A stretch of 64,000 bases of DNA. Origin: Candidatus Hermodarchaeota archaeon. Lineage in GTDB: Archaea; Asgardarchaeota; Hermodarchaeia; Hermodarchaeales; Hermodarchaeaceae. Each line of letters starts with the position of its first letter. Position 1 is the first letter of the stretch. Of the stretch, positions 23,482 through 54,593 are shown piece after piece. The notes under the pieces are model-generated. The model searched no databases. It was given only the letters and a program-made list of their open reading frames with translations, and was not told where the DNA came from. Both the position numbers and the translations under genes were made by a program. The stretch is from the NCBI GenBank assembly GCA_016839365.1, contig JAEOUH010000047.1:14542-78541 (forward strand), given 5' to 3'.

Positions 23482-23593
23482 GCCGGGATAGCCAAGTGGT
23501 TACGGCGCGGGCCTTGAGAGATGCCATGAAGTGTCATCCAAGGTAGCCTGTGACCCTACGGTCGCAAGGGTTCGAATCCCTTTCCCGGCGCCA
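23482..23593 (+). tRNA. tRNA-Ser (anticodon TGA) with a 26-nt canonical intron (23519..23544); CCA encoded
   Basis: Hand-folded cloverleaf: acceptor GCCGGGA/TCCCGGC, discriminator G, long variable arm GACC-CTAC-GGTC, T-arm AAGGG-TTCGAAT-CCCTT. The intron forms a strict BHB: CTTG(AGA)GATG...CATC CAAG(GTA). Confidence 0.9.
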
Positions 23594-24127: not shown

Positions 24128-24156
24128 AATCACATATCATTAAGGGGTAATCAAGT

Positions 24157-25605
24157 ATGAAGGAAAAATTAAAGCAGCAAGACGAGTTTCGCTGGTGGCT
24201 TGACAAATCAGCGCGTCCTCGCATGAACGTCGGGGCAAAGATAATCGGTTCGAAAGAGATCATCAATACCTTAGAGGACGCAGCTGTTGAGCAACTAACC
24301 AACGTAGCAACGCTTCCTGGTCCAATTGAACCGGTTCTGGCCATGCCTGACGCTCATTGGGGATATGGGCTTCCGATGGGAGCCGTTGGCGCTTTTGATG
24401 CTGAAGAGGGGATTATTTCCGCAGGGTGTACAGGTTTTGATATCAACTGTGGCGTCCGCCTCATTCGCACTAATCTTAGTGTTGAAGATGTCCAACCCAA
24501 GTTACAACAGCTAGTTGAGGAGCTATTTAATCGAGTTCCTGCGGGAGTCGGTTCTCAAGGTAAAATTCGATTAAGTGATAGTCAGTTTAGTGATGTTATT
24601 CGGTGGGGAGCTAAGTGGGCGATTGATAATGATCGGGGGGTACCAGCGGATTTAGCCCATTGTGAGGAAGGAGGTTATATGGAGGGAGCCGCCATGCAGG
24701 CACCTCAAGTTAGTGAAAAGGCACGACGTCGCGGACGTCCACAACTTGGTACGCTTGGAGCAGGAAACCATTATCTAGAGGTTCAGAAGGTTGAGAAAAT
24801 TTTTGATGAACCTGTTGCCAAAGTCTTTGGTCTGGAGAAAGGGCAAATAGTGGTGATGCTTCACTGTGGATCCCGTGGATTTGGCCATCAGATTGCAACC
24901 GATTATTTAGAGAGTATGGCTGTAGCAGTTAAGAAATATAACATATGGCTTCCAGATCAACAACTCGTCTGTGCACCTGCAAACTCTCCTGAAGGGCAGG
25001 ACTATTATGCTGCGATGAAGGCAGCAGTGAATTTTGCCTTTTGTAACAGACAGGTTATGACCCATTGGATTCGACAAGGTTTTGAAGCGGTCTTTGGTCG
25101 AGATTGGGAATCGCTGGGGATGCACCTTGTTTATGACGTGACGCATAATATCTGCAAGTTCGAAACCCATGAGGTGAATGGATTGAAACGCGACATGTAT
25201 TTGCATCGGAAAGGTGCGACGCGCGCGTTCGGGCCAGGCAACCCCAAAATCCCTGAAGACTACCGATCAGTTGGTCAACCCGTCCTAATCGGTGGCTCAA
25301 TGGGAACCGCATCCTATGTTCTAGTTGGCACAGAACAGGCAATGAAAGAAACCTTTGGATCCACCTGTCATGGAGCAGGTCGAGCAATGTCTCGAAAAGC
25401 AGCGATTCGCAAGTATCATGGACGAGATATCAAAAACGCACTTGAAGCCAAAGGAAAAGTGGTTCGTTCCATGGGTACAAAGATACTAGCTGAAGAAGCG
25501 CCCAATGCCTACAAAGATGTCCATGTTGTTGTAGACTCAGTCCATGGCGCGGATATCTCACGCAAGGTCGCAAGTCAGATACCATTGGGTGTTGTGAAAG
25601 GCTAG
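24157..25605 (+). CDS. rtcB: RNA-splicing ligase RtcB
   Basis: 482 aa. HCGSRGFGHQ, GSMGTASY and CHGAGR motifs. No intein-sized insertion. Confidence 0.95.
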   Translation: MKEKLKQQDEFRWWLDKSARPRMNVGAKIIGSKEIINTLEDAAVEQLTNVATLPGPIEPVLAMPDAHWGYGLPMGAVGAFDAEEGIISAGCTGFDINCGVRLIRTNLSVEDVQPKLQQLVEELFNRVPAGVGSQGKIRLSDSQFSDVIRWGAKWAIDNDRGVPADLAHCEEGGYMEGAAMQAPQVSEKARRRGRPQLGTLGAGNHYLEVQKVEKIFDEPVAKVFGLEKGQIVVMLHCGSRGFGHQIATDYLESMAVAVKKYNIWLPDQQLVCAPANSPEGQDYYAAMKAAVNFAFCNRQVMTHWIRQGFEAVFGRDWESLGMHLVYDVTHNICKFETHEVNGLKRDMYLHRKGATRAFGPGNPKIPEDYRSVGQPVLIGGSMGTASYVLVGTEQAMKETFGSTCHGAGRAMSRKAAIRKYHGRDIKNALEAKGKVVRSMGTKILAEEAPNAYKDVHVVVDSVHGADISRKVASQIPLGVVKG

Positions 25606-25620
25606 GTTTGGTATTCAAGA

Positions 25621-26508
25621 ATGCTATCAAAAGAAGCTAATCAGATTCCATTTGCGATATCTATTGCCATACCAACCTCCTTCATTGACGTTGACCAAAG
25701 TCGAGAGCAACAAACCCAGCATATCGGACGAATTGCCCGAGCTGCAGCAATCTTTCAAGTCGATGATATTATCATCTATCGGGATAAGATGAATTCAAAA
25801 CAAATGAAGAACCTACAGTTCGTCAGCCGGGTCCTTGAATATATGGAAACACCACAATATCTTCGAAAACACCTCTTTGGAAAGATGCCCGATTTGCAAT
25901 ACGTAGGAAGCCTCCCTCCACTTCGAACACATCATCATCCTCTTGTGAAAGAATCATCGAAGCTTCGGAATGGCGAATTTCGAGAAGGGGTGGTACTTAC
26001 AGCCAAAGGAAAAAATGTTGTAGATGTCGGCGTCGAATCACCTTTACCACTCTTACAATTCAAATCCACTCATCTGCTACAACGAATCACAGTACAAATT
26101 CGAAGAGATAAATCCGGGAAAGTGACCGCACACCCGAGTTCTCCTCCTCGATCCAAACAATATTGGGGATACTCTGTCAAGGGTGTGGAATCCTCTTTGG
26201 GTGACTTCTTGGTGAAAAAAACGAATTATCCTTTCGTTATTGCTACGAGTCGGAGAGGAAGACCAATTGCGGAAGAAGCGAGTAAAATTAGAAGTCAGTG
26301 GGAGAAATTCCATCGACTACTATTGCTTTTTGGGAGCTATAAAGAGGGGCTTGCAGAGATTCTTCAGCGGGACCAAATTGATGTAGCCTCAGTTTCGAAT
26401 CATATTATCAATCTAGTTTTCAATCAGGGCACAGCAACCATTCGAACAGAGGAGGCGGTATTTATGGGGCTCTCCGCATTCAGATTACTTGAACAACTAA
26501 AGGATTAG
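25621..26508 (+). CDS. SPOUT-class putative RNA methyltransferase (DUF171 / Methyltrn_RNA_3, SPOUT1-like)
   Basis: 295 aa. IAIPTSFIDV..., ETPQYLRKHLF, YWGYSV and QGTATIRTEEA signatures as I recall them for this family. Confidence 0.75.
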   Translation: MLSKEANQIPFAISIAIPTSFIDVDQSREQQTQHIGRIARAAAIFQVDDIIIYRDKMNSKQMKNLQFVSRVLEYMETPQYLRKHLFGKMPDLQYVGSLPPLRTHHHPLVKESSKLRNGEFREGVVLTAKGKNVVDVGVESPLPLLQFKSTHLLQRITVQIRRDKSGKVTAHPSSPPRSKQYWGYSVKGVESSLGDFLVKKTNYPFVIATSRRGRPIAEEASKIRSQWEKFHRLLLLFGSYKEGLAEILQRDQIDVASVSNHIINLVFNQGTATIRTEEAVFMGLSAFRLLEQLKD

Positions 26509-39791: not shown

Positions 39792-39832
39792 ATTGCGAAA
39801 AATAGGTTCGCGTGAGTCGCTTATAAGAGTTT

Positions 39833-40390: not shown

Positions 40391-40981
40391 ATGGTAGAGG
40401 AAAACGAACAGCATTCTTCAGAAGAGGAGCGCCTTCCGCTTCCTGATGAGCCTATTCCAGCGAGATTAACTCGGGGAAAAGTAGTGGTTGAAGGTGAGTA
40501 TGCGTCTGTGCTCTATGAGGCGGGGTATTATGGTACGATCAAGGGTGAGCAGAAATTAGAACTTGAGCCCGAAGAAGCGCTCTTATTGGCTCGGCGACAG
40601 CGTATAGCGGTGAGTCTGCCACAAAAGGAGGTGCTGGAATTTTCTTCGCTGCTGATGCGCTTATCAGAGGGGCAGCCGGGACTTTGGACTCGTTTTCTTG
40701 TATACAGTGATCTTCGAAGCCGAGGGTATGTAGTGCGGACGGGGTATGGGAAAGGATTGTTGTTCCGCGTATATCCAAGAGGAGCTAAGATCAATGAGGC
40801 AACTGCTCAGTATTTTGTTTGCGCGATTTCCGAGGGCTCTCCCTTGAAGGTGGAAGAGCTGGATGCGTTTAGCAAACAGGCGAAACGTAACCGGAAGAAG
40901 TTGATGCTTGCTGTGTTAGACCGGCAGGGGGAGACGACGTACTACCTTGTGTCTCCTGCTGATATTGTTGCGGAAAAATAG
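40391..40981 (+). CDS. endA: tRNA-splicing endonuclease family protein (EndA homolog; catalytic His apparently absent)
   Basis: 196 aa. FLVYSDLRSRGYVVRTGYGKGLLFRVY ... QYFVCAIS ... RKKLMLAVLDRQGETTYY aligns by eye to the EndA catalytic domain. The position of the conserved HS(K/E)(Y/W) histidine reads TAQY. Confidence 0.7.
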   Translation: MVEENEQHSSEEERLPLPDEPIPARLTRGKVVVEGEYASVLYEAGYYGTIKGEQKLELEPEEALLLARRQRIAVSLPQKEVLEFSSLLMRLSEGQPGLWTRFLVYSDLRSRGYVVRTGYGKGLLFRVYPRGAKINEATAQYFVCAISEGSPLKVEELDAFSKQAKRNRKKLMLAVLDRQGETTYYLVSPADIVAEK

Positions 40982-40997: not shown

Positions 40998-41120
40998 TGG
41001 CGGGCCCGCCGGGAATTTCGACGTCAACGTTATCGATCGTATTCGAACCCGGGGTTACCAACTTAGGAGGCTGGCGCCTTCTCCGGGGAAGAAGAGCCTA
41101 TCCGGCTTGGCCACGGGCCC
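40998..41120 (-). tRNA. tRNA-Arg (anticodon CCT) with two introns: 20 nt at the 25/26 junction (41076..41095) and 27 nt at 59/60 (41015..41041); CCA encoded
   Basis: Acceptor GGGCCCG/CGGGCCC, anticodon arm CCAGC-CTCCTAA-GTTGG, T-stem CCGGG/CCCGG. The T-loop intron is a strict BHB: TTCG(AAT)ACG...CGT CGAA(ATT). 76 + 47 = 123. Confidence 0.75.
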
Positions 41121-42403: not shown

Positions 42404-42514
42404 GCGGGGGTATCTCCCCCGATAGAGACCCCACAGCCAAGCTTGGTCAAAGGCGCAGGACTTAAGATCCTGTCTCGTAGGAGTTCCCGGGTTCGAAGCC
42501 CGGCCCCCGCACCA
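42404..42514 (+). tRNA. tRNA-Leu (anticodon TAA) with a 23-nt intron at position 8/9 (42412..42434); CCA encoded
   Basis: Acceptor GCGGGGG/CCCCCGC, discriminator A, D-arm GCC-AAGCTTGGTCAAA-GGC, anticodon arm CAGGA-CTTAAGA-TCCTG, long variable arm. Strict BHB: GGGG(GTA)TCTC...GAGA CCCC(ACA). Confidence 0.85.
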
Positions 42515-42944: not shown

Positions 42945-43080
42945 GGGCCGGTAGTCTAGTTATCCGGTTACAACTTGTGCTGGACTAGAGCGGTATGATG
43001 CGAGAAGGAAAACGGGTTCTGTTTTTCTCGCAAAGTTTGGGACCTCGTGGTCCCGAGTTCAAATCTCGGCCGGCCCACCA
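42945..43080 (+). tRNA. tRNA-Pro (anticodon TGG) with two introns: 29 nt in the D-loop (42962..42990) and 30 nt at 30/31 (43005..43034); CCA encoded
   Basis: Acceptor GGGCCGG/CCGGCCC, discriminator A. After excision the anticodon arm is CGAGG-TTTGGGA-CCTCG, the classic Pro loop. Both introns draw as strict BHBs: CTAG(TTA)TCCGGT...GCTGGA CTAG(AGC), and TGCG(AGA)AGGAAAAC...GTTTTTCT CGCA(AAG). Confidence 0.8.
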
Positions 43081-45035: not shown

Positions 45036-45415
45036 TGGAAGCTTTTTTGAGTAACCGTTTACGTTTGTTTGTAAGCAATGAAAGGATAATAGCCACCAAC
45101 GAGGACGAATCCGAAGACTATGATCTGATGATGATTCGTGCAAATTTGTGGCAACACTGGAGCAGCGTTGAGGGTTATGCGGCATGTGACAGGCTCCTGC
45201 ATGATTTAAGACGTGTCGTCAAGAGGTGACTGTGGGGGCAACCCACGATGTCCACACTTCAACGCCGGGTCGCATAGGCTCACAATGCCCGACATATTAA
45301 GAGAGGACTCGTCGGAGGAATGAAGGCGCTCCGCCCACCGATGATGATGGGGCGTTAGTGTATCGGTCAGCAGAGCAGAAGCGACCCATCACTTCTCTAT
45401 ATTATCATCATTCAG

Positions 45416-46279
45416 GTGAAGAAAATAACCTATCGTCACCGCACACCCTTCTATCACTTTCTCAAAACCCAGCTAGGAGACCAGATACCTCCTAGGCTCC
45501 TACCTCGACGGCTTCGAATACTTGGCCATGTAGCAATTTTGTGGCTAAACCCACAAATTGAGCAATACAAGGAGTTGATTGGGGAAACCACGCTGGGATA
45601 TAGTACCAAAATTCGATCCGTCTTACGGCGAACGGCTGCAATTACTGGTCCCTATCGGAAACCTGCCGTGGAATTGATTGCGGGTTCACCTGAAACTGAG
45701 ACCGTCTTTCGAGAAAACAAGGTGATTTTCCATTTGGATCCAGTGAAAGTCATGTTCTCCGTTGGAAATAAGGCAGAACGGCTGCGCATGAGCAAACTGG
45801 GAACTGATGAGTTTGTCGTTGACATGTTTGCTGGGATAGGGCATCTATCTCTTCCCATGGCTGTGCATGCAAAACCTAAAGTCATTCATGCGATTGAGTG
45901 GAATCCTGATGCCTTCCATTTTCTTCAACAGAACATCCAATCAAACAATGTCTCCCACTTGTTTCAACCACATTTTGGAGATACCCGTCAACTCGCCCCG
46001 AGAATAGGTAAAGGTCAAGGAGATCGCGTCATCATGGGTTTAATTCAAGGCACTGATCAGTATCTCGAACAAGGAATACAATGCCTTCGTCCCGGGGGTA
46101 TGATGCACATTCATGAAATCGGTCCTAAAGAAGATATGGCAACACAACTGCTTTCACAATTGCACAAGATTGCATTGACGATGAACCGACAAGCGGATCT
46201 TGTTAGCACACGGATGATAAAGACCTATAATCCTAGATACAACCACTTCGTTCTTGATATCCAACTAAACAGTAGGTAA
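45416..46279 (+). CDS. Met-10+ family tRNA methyltransferase (Trm5 / Taw2-like)
   Basis: 287 aa, GTG start. SAM motif VDMFAGIGHLSLP and IEWNPDA. The size is closer to Taw2 than to full-length aTrm5. Confidence 0.75.
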   Translation: MKKITYRHRTPFYHFLKTQLGDQIPPRLLPRRLRILGHVAILWLNPQIEQYKELIGETTLGYSTKIRSVLRRTAAITGPYRKPAVELIAGSPETETVFRENKVIFHLDPVKVMFSVGNKAERLRMSKLGTDEFVVDMFAGIGHLSLPMAVHAKPKVIHAIEWNPDAFHFLQQNIQSNNVSHLFQPHFGDTRQLAPRIGKGQGDRVIMGLIQGTDQYLEQGIQCLRPGGMMHIHEIGPKEDMATQLLSQLHKIALTMNRQADLVSTRMIKTYNPRYNHFVLDIQLNSR

Positions 46280-47518: not shown

Positions 47519-47938
47519 ATGTGCCCCCTACGTGAAGCGACCCAAGCGAAGCAGGAGCGACTGGAAGAGCGTTTTGTAAAAGGTGTTCAGCTCTTGATTA
47601 ACCTCTCGGAAGACGGGGTAACAATAGTAGTAGAGGGGATTAAGGATATCACTGCACTACGGGGATTAGGACTGAGTGGACCTATTTACATGCTTGCGGG
47701 TCACAGTGTCGTTAGTTTAGCTGATGAATTGGCTAATATTCCTCGTTTACTCATCCTATTTGATTTTGATCGACGGGGAGGGCAATTGACAAGACGACTA
47801 ACTGATCAATTAGAAGGGCGAGGGGTCTCAATACTTCATCGAGAAAGGCACCAGTTAAGGCGAGCGTTTTGTTGGCGTGTGAGGGTAATTGAGGGACTGA
47901 AGGGAATTGAGAAAACTCCGAAAGGCACAAAATTTTAA
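47519..47938 (+). CDS. small Toprim-domain protein
   Basis: 139 aa. VVEGIKD (Toprim Glu) and FDFDRRGG (DxD) motifs. Confidence 0.65.
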   Translation: MCPLREATQAKQERLEERFVKGVQLLINLSEDGVTIVVEGIKDITALRGLGLSGPIYMLAGHSVVSLADELANIPRLLILFDFDRRGGQLTRRLTDQLEGRGVSILHRERHQLRRAFCWRVRVIEGLKGIEKTPKGTKF

Positions 47939-47964: not shown

Positions 47965-48068
47965 ATCACAATTACCAAATTACCTAATCATCATCACAAA
48001 TCACTTCAAAGTGGCGTTATCAATATCACACGCCCGCACTTACATATCACAAATCATTTCACAAGGTG
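47965..48068 (+). repeat. four ATCACA motifs, including two near-identical ~20-mers (47993..48013 and 48046..48068), in a G-depleted leader upstream of dnaG
   Basis: ATCACAAATCACTTCAAAGTG versus ATCACAAATCATTTCACAAGGTG. Additional ATCACA copies lie at 47965 and 48025. Bases 47961..48010 contain a single G. Confidence 0.6.
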
Positions 48069-48074
48069 ACGATT

Positions 48075-49374
48075 ATGGGAACAAATGCAGAAGGTACTGG
48101 TACTACGAAGTATTGTATTCATGGTAAAATCGAGATAGATGGAGTAGTTGAGACCCCCGATGTTGTAGGTGCTCTCTTCGGTCAAACGGAGGGCCTACAC
48201 TTCATATCGGCGATGTGAAGGGGTAATCGGTGAAGATTTAGATCTAAGAGAATTACAACAGTCGGGGCGGATTGGTCGAATAAAAGTCGAGCTTCACACT
48301 GAGAGTGGAAAATCAAAGGGCACTATCACTATCCCATGTAGCCTAGATCGGACGGAAACTGCAATCCTTGCTGCAGCAATGGAAACAGTGGACAGAGTTG
48401 GTCCTTGTGCGGCTAAAATAACCCTTGAAAAACTCGAGGATGTCCGCGAAGAAAAGCGGCAACAAATCGTAAATCGTGCAGTAGATTTGCTACGGGATTG
48501 GGAAGGGGAAATCTCTCCAGATTCTCAGGAAATGACGGATACGGTTCTTCAACAGGCACGTACTGCAGAGATTATCAAACTCGGCAAAGAAAAGCTGCCT
48601 GCAGGGCCGGAGGTAGAGATATCAAAGACCATTATCATCGTAGAGGGTCGAGCAGATGTCTTAGCCCTGTTGAGATCTGGTGTCAAGAACGCTGTTGCAG
48701 TTGAGGGGACATCGGTTCCCAAATCTATTGCTGACATTGCCAAGGGGAAAACCGTGATTGCATTTCTCGATGGAGATCGTGGTGGGGATCTAATTCTAAA
48801 GGAGCTTGCACAAACCATCAAGGTTGATTATGTGGCTAGAGCACCTACTGGTAGAGAGGTAGAAGAACTCACTCACAAAGAGGTTACTAAAGCTCTCCGT
48901 AATAGGATTCCAGCAGGGCAGATTTTAGGAAAAGCGCCAGCTAAGGCGAAGCCAAAGGAGAAGAAGCGTACCCGTCGGACCCCCGAGAAGATCAAGAAAC
49001 CGCGTCGCACAACAACGCGTACCACCTCTCGCATTACCACACGAACGAAAGTTGAAGCAAAACCAGAGCCAAAGGTGAAGGATTTGGGAATCCCAGAGCC
49101 GGTGCTTGATTCGGCTCAAAAGATTCAACGGACGATGATGGCAGTCATCATGGACGAGAAGTTTAAGCAATTAAAGGAGACTCATGTGGGTGAACTTGCT
49201 AACGATTTGCAGGAACTTGATAAGGCTAAAGTGCTTATCCTTGATGGCGTTGTAACACAACGCCTTATTGATATTGCCGAAGATCGTGGCGTCGAATTAA
49301 TTATTGGGGTGCGAGTTGGCAATATTGTGAAGAAACCGGCGAAAATGCGTATCCACACTTTCGATGAACTGTGA
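48075..49374 (+). CDS. dnaG: archaeal DnaG (Toprim; primase-like, exosome-associated), interrupted: join(48075..48198,48227..49374)
   Basis: ATG 48075 is preceded by GGTGA and encodes [41 protein letters not shown]. That frame stops at 48216..48218. The rest ([19 protein letters not shown]..., [17 protein letters not shown]) lies in the frame of the track ORF 48169..49374. Removing 28 nt gives a continuous 423-aa protein. Confidence 0.85.
48199..48226 (+). other. candidate bulge-helix-bulge intron inside the dnaG coding sequence
   Basis: GCCT(48193-96) pairs with GGGT(48221-24). The 3-nt bulges are ACA(48197-99) and AAT(48225-27). The hairpin is CTTCATATC-GGC-GATGTGAAG (48200-48220). Cutting after the 2nd bulge nucleotide removes 28 nt. 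Confidence 0.6.
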
Positions 49375-50862: not shown

Positions 50863-51345
50863 TTAGCTTTTTTGTTTACCAGTCGAGTGACGGATCTTTA
50901 CAGCTACTCCACGGGTTAGATCTAACATTTCTTGAGGACTAAGACTGGCCCTTCCAACGGCAAGCAATCTATCTTGACCATCAACAACTATTACCTCATC
51001 ACCAGCGCGAAGCTGTGGATCTACTGCTATAACATGCTTGGCAAAGACGCTACGACCCTCTGAAATGAATGGGGCCACCTCTTGGACCACAACTACTCTG
51101 AGTTTGGGAAAAGGTATTGCGTTGTGCAGTCGTCGAGCTCCTTCGATGGTAAGAACAAGGAACCCGTCATGTGCGCGAATAGTAGCAAGAATCTGTGCAT
51201 TAAAAATAACCCGGCGAATTCGACCAGAGCTTTTTGAAATCTCCACCTGACAATTGTCAGGAAAAACCTGGTGTCCGATTGCTGCTCGAAATTGGTAGTT
51301 AGCAATTCCTCGTACTCGATACAATCTTTCATTGATTTGCGACAT
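50863..51345 (-). CDS. PUA-domain RNA-binding protein
   Basis: 160 aa. C-terminal LRAGDEVIVVDGQDRLLAVGRASLSPQEM...GVAVKIRH, typical of a PUA domain. Confidence 0.7.
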   Translation of the reverse strand: MSQINERLYRVRGIANYQFRAAIGHQVFPDNCQVEISKSSGRIRRVIFNAQILATIRAHDGFLVLTIEGARRLHNAIPFPKLRVVVVQEVAPFISEGRSVFAKHVIAVDPQLRAGDEVIVVDGQDRLLAVGRASLSPQEMLDLTRGVAVKIRHSTGKQKS

Positions 51346-51372
51346 AATTCGCCTCGTCTTCTTTTCAACGGG

Positions 51373-53229: not shown

Positions 53230-53273
53230 ATTGTTAAGTAAGAACCGTGAGTTGTAACAGGCTGGATATTCGG

Positions 53274-53840
53274 ATGAGCGCACCTAAATGGAGGATTACT
53301 GTACTCAAGCTGGATCACCGTCCCGAGCGCGATAAACGTCTTACAACTCATGTGGGATTAACGGCCCGTGCATTTGGTGCGAGCGAGTTTTGGTCAGCTG
53401 GACTTAAGGATACAAATATCATGGATACAATCCAGCAGGTTTCTAATCAATGGGGTAAGAAAGATTTCATAGTACTTACAGGTGTCAAATGGAAGACCCG
53501 TCTTCGTCAATGGAAGGAGGAGAATGGGGAAGTCATTCATCTTACCATGTACGGACTTCACGTAGATGATGTAATTGATGATATTCGTCGCTCACAGCAA
53601 CCGAAACTCGTTGTTGTAGGAGGTCCTAAGGTTCCGAACCAAATATACCAGTTAGCTGATTACAATGTAGCTGTTGGTCATCAACCCCATAGTGAAGTGG
53701 CAGCACTTTCAATCTTTTTAGATCGGCTGTTTGAAGGGCAAATGCTTCGCTGGGAATTCCCTGATGCCGTGCTACGAATCCAAGCAACCTCACATGGGAA
53801 ACGGATAATCGAAGCCGAAGAAAAAAAAAGGGCGATTTAA
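53274..53840 (+). CDS. tRNA (cytidine56-2'-O)-methyltransferase aTrm56
   Basis: LDHRPERDKRLTTHVGLTARAFGA signature. I prefer ATG 53274 over GTG 53247. Confidence 0.8.
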   Translation: MSAPKWRITVLKLDHRPERDKRLTTHVGLTARAFGASEFWSAGLKDTNIMDTIQQVSNQWGKKDFIVLTGVKWKTRLRQWKEENGEVIHLTMYGLHVDDVIDDIRRSQQPKLVVVGGPKVPNQIYQLADYNVAVGHQPHSEVAALSIFLDRLFEGQMLRWEFPDAVLRIQATSHGKRIIEAEEKKRAI

Positions 53841-54484: not shown

Positions 54485-54593
54485 GGGCCGATAGTCTAGC
54501 TATCTGAGAGGAGGCTATTCTCTTGGACTAGAAGGCTATGATATCGCGTTTACACCGCGATGGTCGGGGGTTCGAGTCCCTCTCGGCCCACCA
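54485..54593 (+). tRNA. tRNA-Val (anticodon TAC) with a 32-nt D-loop intron (54502..54533); CCA encoded
   Basis: Acceptor GGGCCGA/TCGGCCC, discriminator A, anticodon arm TCGCG-TTTACAC-CGCGA, T-arm GGGGG-TTCGAGT-CCCTC. Strict BHB: CTAG(CTA)TCTGAGAGGA...TTCTCTTGGA CTAG(AAG). Confidence 0.85.

Follow-up and report, generated by a model that had tools for sequence, protein, structure and literature searches.

A 28-nucleotide insertion in dnaG of Hermodarchaeia as a candidate bulge–helix–bulge intron

The dnaG locus and its interrupted reading frame

The stretch of DNA analyzed here (the window, to which all positions refer) comprises 64,000 nt of contig JAEOUH010000047.1 of Candidatus Hermodarchaeota archaeon and carries the gene dnaG, whose reading frame is broken by an insertion of 28 nt. 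An archaeal signal recognition particle RNA, a 5S rRNA and several long tRNA genes mark the window as archaeal DNA. The comparison with related loci and the predicted RNA structure suggest that the insertion (48199..48226) is very probably an intron of the bulge–helix–bulge (BHB) type which is spliced out of the dnaG pre-mRNA by the tRNA-splicing endonuclease EndA and the RNA ligase RtcB, and which is conserved across Hermodarchaeia.

The conserved N-terminus of DnaG is encoded from the ATG at 48075, to which the start codon of dnaG in the relatives is homologous, and this frame is closed by a TGA at 48216–48218. The remainder of the protein is encoded in the +1 frame within the open reading frame (ORF) 48169..49374. 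This break had already been described in an initial annotation of the sequence and is directly visible, and the proposal made there that removing 28 nt restores the frame has been borne out: without 48199..48226 a 423-aa product is obtained which scores 518.8 bits against the NCBIfam equivalog model of DnaG (cutoff 300). When a deletion of 28 nt was slid over 30 positions, this position alone gave the sequence GLLG, i.e., GQTEGLLGEDLDL. An alignment of the spliced product with intron-less DnaG proteins, which the initial annotation had recommended as a check, shows no gap over the junction.

We then consider the homologs. A search with the spliced protein returned about 50 close homologs with 62–98% identity, labelled as Hermodarchaeia, Hermodarchaeota or Promethearchaeota. 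Their query coverage is just 65–94% and their N-termini are missing or artefactual, with the exception of P0046, where the true N-terminus is present and the truncation is at the C-terminus instead. In the more distant Asgard archaea (Jord-, Loki-, Freya-, and Baldrarchaeia), with ~50% identity, DnaG is complete. Likewise 76 other archaeal dnaG loci are uninterrupted and read FGQTEGL[LF]G..LDLRELQ with zero length variation. The set of interrupted relatives comprises 12 genomes, each representing a species, together with 4 contigs from metagenomes and 5 other contigs. In all 21 the insertion is found at the identical nucleotide; 20 carry 28 nt, and L014 carries 31 nt. Residues 1–114 of the spliced product were used as a protein database query for fragments from Hermodarchaeia spanning the junction; none was found, and the matches were short fragments from other archaea with at most 73% identity.

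One contig of the same clade, L013 (JGI Ga0395754_008471, 1524 nt), lacks the insertion. It reads GAGGGCCTAC/TCGGTGAAGAT, i.e., GGGCCTAC/TCGG (CTAC/TCGG), which is the predicted junction to the base; the comparison of orthologs demanded by the initial annotation has thus returned the same insertion in 21 related loci and its precise absence in one. The protein encoded by L013 is identical to P0040 at 285 of the 286 aligned residues, and P0040 has been called as a 49-residue ORF followed by the main ORF, the same pattern as in the interrupted loci L097 and L098. Since L013 is intron-less and at the same time nearly identical to a protein called in two pieces, it represents either a very recent loss of the intron or a contig derived from a transcript. 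The contig spans the gene and about 100–120 nt on each side and has a homopolymer frameshift (A7 versus A6) near the C-terminus; a comparison of its 5′ end with L098 revealed no obvious promoter.

At up to three mismatches no other copy of the 28-nt element was found in the window, and it is therefore not a repeated mobile element here. A self-splicing intron of group I or group II was considered and rejected, the insert having just 28 nt compared with the hundreds of nucleotides of a ribozyme core, and an Rfam search of the region gave no match.

Two features upstream of dnaG may be mentioned. A motif of the type AATCATCATCA is conserved about 90–100 nt upstream of the start of dnaG in several Hermodarchaeia loci (window 47985–48010; L013:1–15; L098:1180–1195) and may be a promoter or leader element. 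Directly upstream of dnaG there is a small ORF of ~130–139 aa with a Toprim domain (window 47519–47938 (+); L014:843–1235; L099:366–764; others), which resembles PRK04017 with a score under the cutoff and which forms a conserved gene pair with dnaG in the loci of Hermodarchaeia and Jordarchaeales alike.

Predicted RNA structure and splicing machinery

The initial annotation had drawn a helix of GCCU with GGGU and a 9-bp hairpin with a GGC loop, and asked for the region to be folded. The unconstrained minimum free energy (MFE) fold recovers this helix, the ACA bulge and the hairpin (Table 1), and an RNAalifold analysis of 17 homologs over a 123-nt window independently returns the identical core. 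The central helix is paired in 100% of the cells of the 17 sequences, with G-C and G·U alternating at two of its pairs. The ACA bulge is unpaired in both structures and invariant in the 17 sequences. In the hairpin there are compensatory changes from C-G to U-A, from U-A to C-G, and from A-U to G-C. Of the AAU at the other end of the helix the first and third bases are invariant, and the middle base is A, T, or G. Further out, the RNAalifold structure contains a distal helix of 6 bp between the exons which is kept in 17/17 homologs except for one cell, by way of U/C changes opposite G. Altogether 97.1% of the cells of the proposed pairs are paired in the 17 distinct sequences compared with 37–53% in slid controls. 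Three pairs show double-sided changes, and in 0 of 500 shuffles was the observed paired percentage or covariation score matched, these counts not being probabilities because the 17 sequences are related.

The substitution pattern agrees with a structural role of the insert. Counting variable columns in the flanking exons gives 6/32, 2/32, and 28/31 for the first, second, and third codon position, and in the insert there is no codon periodicity in either frame. Within the insert, substitutions fall in the loop, the upper part of the hairpin, the central helix at its G·U/G-C pair, and the 3′ bulge at its middle base; the columns of the hairpin loop show three to four different bases each. No variation is seen at either cut site or at the foot of the hairpin. 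To sum up, it is the structure and not the coding content that is conserved in the dnaG insert.

Splicing could proceed as follows. In the folded dnaG transcript the exon sequence GCCU would pair with the intron sequence GGGU, and the resulting 4-bp helix would lie between the ACA bulge, backed by the 9-bp hairpin of the intron, and the AAU bulge or loop, which would be held near by pairing between the exons. The tRNA-splicing endonuclease would cut after the second nucleotide of each bulge (48198/48199 and 48226/48227) and RtcB would join the exons to …GGC CUA C/UC GGU GAA…, giving the 423-aa DnaG with the invariant GQTEGLLG. Cuts at exactly these places would leave a functional reading frame. 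On the unspliced transcript translation would end at the TGA at 48216 after 47 codons.

The window encodes an RtcB ligase together with an EndA homolog, as expected for a BHB intron. The EndA homolog matches TIGR00324 (endA) with 66.4 bits (cutoff 59.6), and its best match among solved structures is EndA of Methanocaldococcus jannaschii (1A79, E 4.7e-21). In NCBIfam it matches best the N-terminal (structural) repeat of the two-unit endonucleases. In the alignment it has a Thr opposite the catalytic His of the M. jannaschii enzyme (His125 in M. jannaschii numbering). Because of this Thr and of the matches to the N-terminal repeat, the protein encoded at 40391–40981 may serve as structural subunit in a heteromeric enzyme. 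Such a reading would agree with the (αβ)2 type of EndA, with an L1 loop, which has been reported for Asgard archaea (PMC5829648). An ORF at 39827/39854–40378 (+) was tried as EndA β subunit and discarded, since searches of Pfam and the PDB gave no match for it and a longer ORF overlaps it on the other strand. Genes for tRNA processing are plentiful in the window: a putative RNA methyltransferase follows immediately after RtcB at 25606–26508, and there are Trm56 (53238–53840), TYW2/Trm5 (45359–46279) and a TGT_C2 plus PUA protein (50863–51372).

Table 1. Predicted features of the dnaG locus and genes of the splicing pathway in the window
Feature	Position	Strand	Remarks
Shine-Dalgarno-like GGTGA	48065..48069	+	5 nt upstream of the dnaG ATG at 48075
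dnaG exon 1	48075..48198	+	41 codons and first base (C) of Leu42
Predicted intron, 28 nt, ACTTCATATCGGCGATGTGAAGGGGTAA	48199..48226	+	sole 28-nt deletion giving GQTEGLLG; same site in 21 relatives
dnaG exon 2	48227..49374	+	last two bases of Leu42 to stop codon; includes Toprim domain
Central 4-bp helix, exon strand GCCU	48193..48196	+	pairs with 48221–48224
Central 4-bp helix, intron strand GGGU	48221..48224	+	two G-C and two G·U pairs
5′ bulge ACA, 3 nt	48197..48199	+	predicted cut 48198/48199
Intron hairpin	48200..48220	+	9 bp (one U·G), 3-nt loop GGC
3′ bulge or loop AAU	48225..48227	+	predicted cut 48226/48227
Distal exon–exon helix, 5′ strand UCUUCG	48175..48180	+	RNAalifold pairing with 48231–48236
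Distal exon–exon helix, 3′ strand UGAAGA	48231..48236	+	RNAalifold pairing with 48175–48180
Predicted exon junction in dnaG mRNA			GGGCCUAC/UCGGUGAAGA
Diagnostic k-mers of dnaG			spliced GAGGGCCTACTCGGTGAAGA; unspliced GGGCCTACACTTCATATC; circular intron AAGGGGTAAACTTCATA
Tryptic peptide over predicted DnaG junction			FGQTEGLLGEDLDLR
EndA homolog, 196 aa	40391..40981	+	Pfam tRNA_int_endo and tRNA_int_endo_N
RtcB RNA ligase	24151..25605	+	stop-to-stop frame; PF01139, E 2.2e-170, full-length, match from residue 48

Several observations weigh against splicing of the dnaG insert. The AAU is closed by a single pair, G48192-C48228, which is conserved in 17/17 sequences and costs +2.7 kcal, and the MFE fold draws a 2 × 2 internal loop at this position. 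With one weak closing pair and this internal loop the motif is relaxed on the 3′ side and is not a strict hBHBh′ motif. Of the two 3-nt bulges proposed in the initial annotation only ACA is hence returned as such by the MFE fold, and the weakness of the outer helix noted there holds for the adjacent helix, which is this one G-C pair, and not for the distal 6-bp exon helix. In addition, covariation is modest, the sequence of the insert being highly conserved, and several of the 17 sequences have one mismatch in the hairpin. The local folding energy is unexceptional (z = −1.69); it lacks significance and is given no weight here. On the enzyme side, the Thr in place of the catalytic His has to be counted here, and no catalytic EndA subunit was seen in the window. 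Finally, BHB-like geometry is common by chance: both strands of the window contain 919 loose motifs, and there are 174 hairpins of at least 9 bp. In just 6 of the 919 motifs is the stem 9 bp or longer and the intron no longer than 40 nt, and one of these six is found at the single nucleotide where the frame of an essential gene needs repair. The weight comes from this coincidence of position, with the canonical cut rule yielding the one correct junction: the dnaG motif owes its significance to where it lies, to its exact junction and to its conservation, and not to geometry alone.

As to the relaxed 3′ side, for cbf5 the cuts are predicted between the second and third bulge nucleotides, and the use of relaxed motifs is attributed to hetero-oligomeric EndA (PMC2738675). 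The dnaG motif is the kind of substrate which the literature assigns to hetero-oligomeric or ε-type endonucleases (PMC2738675, PMC5829648). We infer that EndA would cleave the relaxed motif in dnaG and that RtcB would ligate the exons in vivo.

A second insertion in Jordarchaeales and alternative explanations

The dnaG gene of the locus L063, whose nearest protein is labelled Jordarchaeales, is interrupted too (L063:1306–1336). Counted from the Hermodarchaeia site, this insertion is placed 13 nt further upstream, where it follows immediately on the Gln codon (FGQ/LEGLLG). The six closest protein relatives of L063 are all N-terminally truncated, and the other proteins of Jord- and Freyarchaeia are full length. 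Four more contigs carry the insertion (L099, L100, L101, and L102, at about 985–1020 in each), and in the five sequences it is 31, 32, 34, 31, and 31 nt long. With lengths of 31, 32, and 34 nt the frame offset differs by genome, and no fixed translational recoding could repair the frame, while excision could; on this ground frameshifting is excluded for the Jordarchaeales insert by its lengths. The insert folds into an AAU bulge, an interrupted hairpin of 10 bp and a GGCC/GGC(A) helix, which in L101 becomes a perfect GGUC/GACC helix through a compensatory change from C-G to U-A; compensatory changes occur in the hairpin as well. Of the cells of the proposed pairs 92.6% are paired compared with 31–50% in slid controls, the shuffle control being weak with five sequences. 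There is zero sequence similarity between the introns of Jordarchaeales and Hermodarchaeia, and so the two look like independent gains within one short stretch of dnaG. As far as the comparison of sequences goes, the Jordarchaeales insert shows removal at the RNA level in the same region of the gene.

An assembly indel, a genuine pseudogene and translational bypassing had been named as alternatives in the initial annotation. For an artefact of assembly or sequencing in the window nothing speaks beyond its a priori possibility. Independent projects (NCBI metagenome-assembled genomes (MAGs), JGI, ENA) have yielded 21 other loci with the insertion, which varies in sequence among them. Given this agreement to the nucleotide among 21 independent assemblies, these genomes exclude both a sporadic pseudogene and an error of assembly. 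One might also suppose that the frame is not repaired at all, dnaG being split into a peptide of ~47 residues and a separately initiated C-terminal protein or being a pseudogene; gene callers do annotate two pieces with various artefactual starts. The downstream piece, however, has no conserved start codon, and the starts called for it vary by genome. The break would lie inside the most conserved motif of the protein, and a second copy of dnaG was not seen among the loci returned. Moreover both exons are under purifying selection, the relationship CTAC…TCGG is invariant in 22 loci, and the structure of the insert is itself conserved. We consider a lack of repair very unlikely.

Two further explanations place the repair at the ribosome. 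By programmed +1 frameshifting the insert would be translated and the frame shifted before the frame-0 stop, with 9–10 additional residues in GQTEGLLG as the outcome. The downstream frame is indeed +1, and the lengths in Hermodarchaeia of 28 and 31 nt are both 1 mod 3, so that length alone is compatible with frameshifting. Every sequence also has an open window between the last stop of the +1 frame and the first stop of frame 0. This open window is sometimes only one codon wide, and the place where a shift would be allowed changes from sequence to sequence: in L002 frame 0 is closed by a TAG at offset 11, and in seven sequences a +1-frame stop at offset 12–14 would force the shift onto the last sense codon before the UGA. 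This codon varies (AUG, AUA, AUU, ACA, GCA) and offers no re-pairing; the sole rule that would suit every sequence is a shift at the first stop, on such variable P-site codons. The missing codon periodicity of the insert argues against its translation as well, the product, with its 9–10 variable residues, would break a motif that has zero indels in 76 other archaeal DnaG proteins, L013 has exactly the spliced junction, and the analogous lengths of 31, 32, and 34 nt in Jordarchaeales are incompatible with one direction of shift. Frameshifting is for these reasons highly improbable. Translational bypassing of the type known from gene 60 of phage T4 would require a take-off near the 5′ end of the insert and a landing near its 3′ end. 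A hairpin after the take-off region and a stop codon within the gap are both present, and, as the sequence suggests, a hop from CUA at 48195–97 to GUA at 48223–25, or from GGC to GGG, would keep the length of the protein. The landing codon is GUA or GCA, though, is unconserved and never equals the take-off codon CUA, and a hop from GGC to GGG would give VI, AI, AF, AV, or VF where archaea have LL or LF. The variation in columns 48 and 50 would then be non-synonymous, whereas with a BHB structure it is neutral, concerning G·U versus G-C and a bulge base. Bypassing thus appears extremely unlikely, and excision of the insert as a BHB intron remains the reading that we favor.

Relation to other introns of the window and to known systems

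Introns in the anticodon loop are present in tRNA-Asp, tRNA-Tyr, and tRNA-Ser(UGA) of the window. The initial annotation had remarked on a geometry common to the dnaG insert and these tRNA introns, and this likeness is confirmed by tRNA-Ser(UGA) (23482–23590), whose 26-nt intron (23519–23544) consists of 1 nt, a hairpin, 4 nt, and 2 nt, as does the dnaG intron. The gene for tRNA-Arg(CCU) at 41120..40998 (−) carries two short insertions, regarded as introns, outside the canonical sites (D-arm region and T-loop); it was missed by ARAGORN and Rfam, and ARAGORN calls the gene only once both insertions are removed. ARAGORN in intron mode also reports a tRNA-Ser(GCU) with a 49-nt intron at 42945–43080 (+), just upstream of the 5S rRNA gene, and Rfam a sub-threshold tRNA (27.3 bits) at 42435–42503 (+) with CUUAAGA in the anticodon region. 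These two may be further disrupted tRNA genes.

A brute-force scan of the window for BHB-like motifs that fuse two open frames gave 1216 candidates and was too noisy to reveal other mRNA introns. Neighboring and overlapping pairs of large ORFs were checked with Pfam for split genes, and none turned out to be two halves of one family. Two ORFs of the glycine-cleavage P-protein both match GDC-P (PF02347), one with the whole and one with a partial profile, and presumably represent the usual two-subunit form of this protein. A strong BHB-like motif at 54496–54534 (+) with a 10-bp hairpin, a 4-bp helix, five outer pairs, and an "intron" of 32 nt opens an unannotated frame of 190 residues right after the TFIIE-α gene.

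Introns of the tRNA-splicing pathway in protein-coding genes are almost unknown in archaea. For coding sequences the initial annotation had cited crenarchaeal cbf5 as precedent, and this is indeed the sole one that we found in the literature (PMC2738675, PMC7714728). A study from 2020 names cbf5 as the only other reported BHB intron in an mRNA beside a case in a 5′ untranslated region (UTR) of Haloferax (PMC7714728), and a paper on the endonuclease from 2025 still cites cbf5 alone (PMC12397907). A paper from 2024 reports introns in 92–95% of the tRNA genes of some Asgard genomes and does not mention mRNA introns (PMC11291895). Our search of the literature on BHB introns in dnaG, Asgard archaea or Hermodarchaeota found no report of the dnaG element, which would be the second family of BHB introns in a coding gene known in archaea after cbf5. 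A class-wide intron in an essential gene of information processing, together with a second independent one, would extend the phenomenon to the closest prokaryotic relatives of the eukaryotes, and suggests that the heavy load of tRNA introns in Asgard archaea (PMC11291895) spills over into mRNAs. All public annotations of these dnaG genes are truncated or split. Such genes escape gene callers and the completeness estimates made for Asgard MAGs, and a systematic search for BHB-interrupted ORFs is worthwhile.

Compared with the intron in cbf5 of Crenarchaeota (Watanabe 2002; Yokobori 2009, PMC2738675), the dnaG intron is likewise small, non-spliceosomal, in phase 1 and located at a highly conserved motif, which in cbf5 is the catalytic motif (PMC2738675). 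The two have further in common that the BHB motifs are mostly relaxed, that the cuts are predicted after the second bulge nucleotide and that the occurrence is restricted to a clade with gain or loss. Gene and lineage differ, the dnaG introns belonging to Asgard Hermodarchaeia and separately to a subclade of Jordarchaeales, and splicing of cbf5 has been verified by cDNA and in vitro cleavage, whereas the dnaG case is known from comparative evidence. The BHB intron of HVO_1309 of Haloferax volcanii (PMC7714728) is likewise contained in an mRNA substrate of the tRNA-splicing endonuclease; it differs in lying in the 5′ UTR and not in coding sequence, and its host is a euryarchaeon with a dimeric EndA.

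The intron of tRNA-Ser(UGA) and that of dnaG, with 26 and 28 nt, share the same succession of exon helix strand, 3-nt bulge, hairpin, intron helix strand, and a 3-nt bulge ending in the first base of the 3′ exon. In the tRNA the anticodon stem provides a stable outer helix by the 3′ bulge, while dnaG has one G-C pair and the distal 6-bp helix. Unlike for the tRNA introns the host RNA of the dnaG intron is an mRNA, in which splicing would shift the reading frame. In gene 60 of phage T4 the ORF likewise contains a gap that is not translated and that includes a hairpin and an in-frame stop, and bypassing needs matched take-off and landing codons; such codons are absent in dnaG.

In the splicing of XBP1 and HAC1 a short, frame-changing intron (26 nt in XBP1) is removed without a spliceosome and the exons are joined by an RtcB-family or tRNA ligase. 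One may speculate, although we regard it as rather unlikely, that Asgard archaea have repeatedly gained EndA/RtcB introns at a hot spot in dnaG and that these are retained for a function, splicing gating DnaG on the tRNA-splicing capacity of the cell. If true, the gating of DnaG, a subunit of exosome and primase, would be an archaeal counterpart of XBP1/HAC1 splicing in the lineage closest to eukaryotes. In XBP1 and HAC1, different from dnaG, the endonuclease is IRE1, the substrate is formed by twin stem–loops, and splicing acts as a regulated stress switch.

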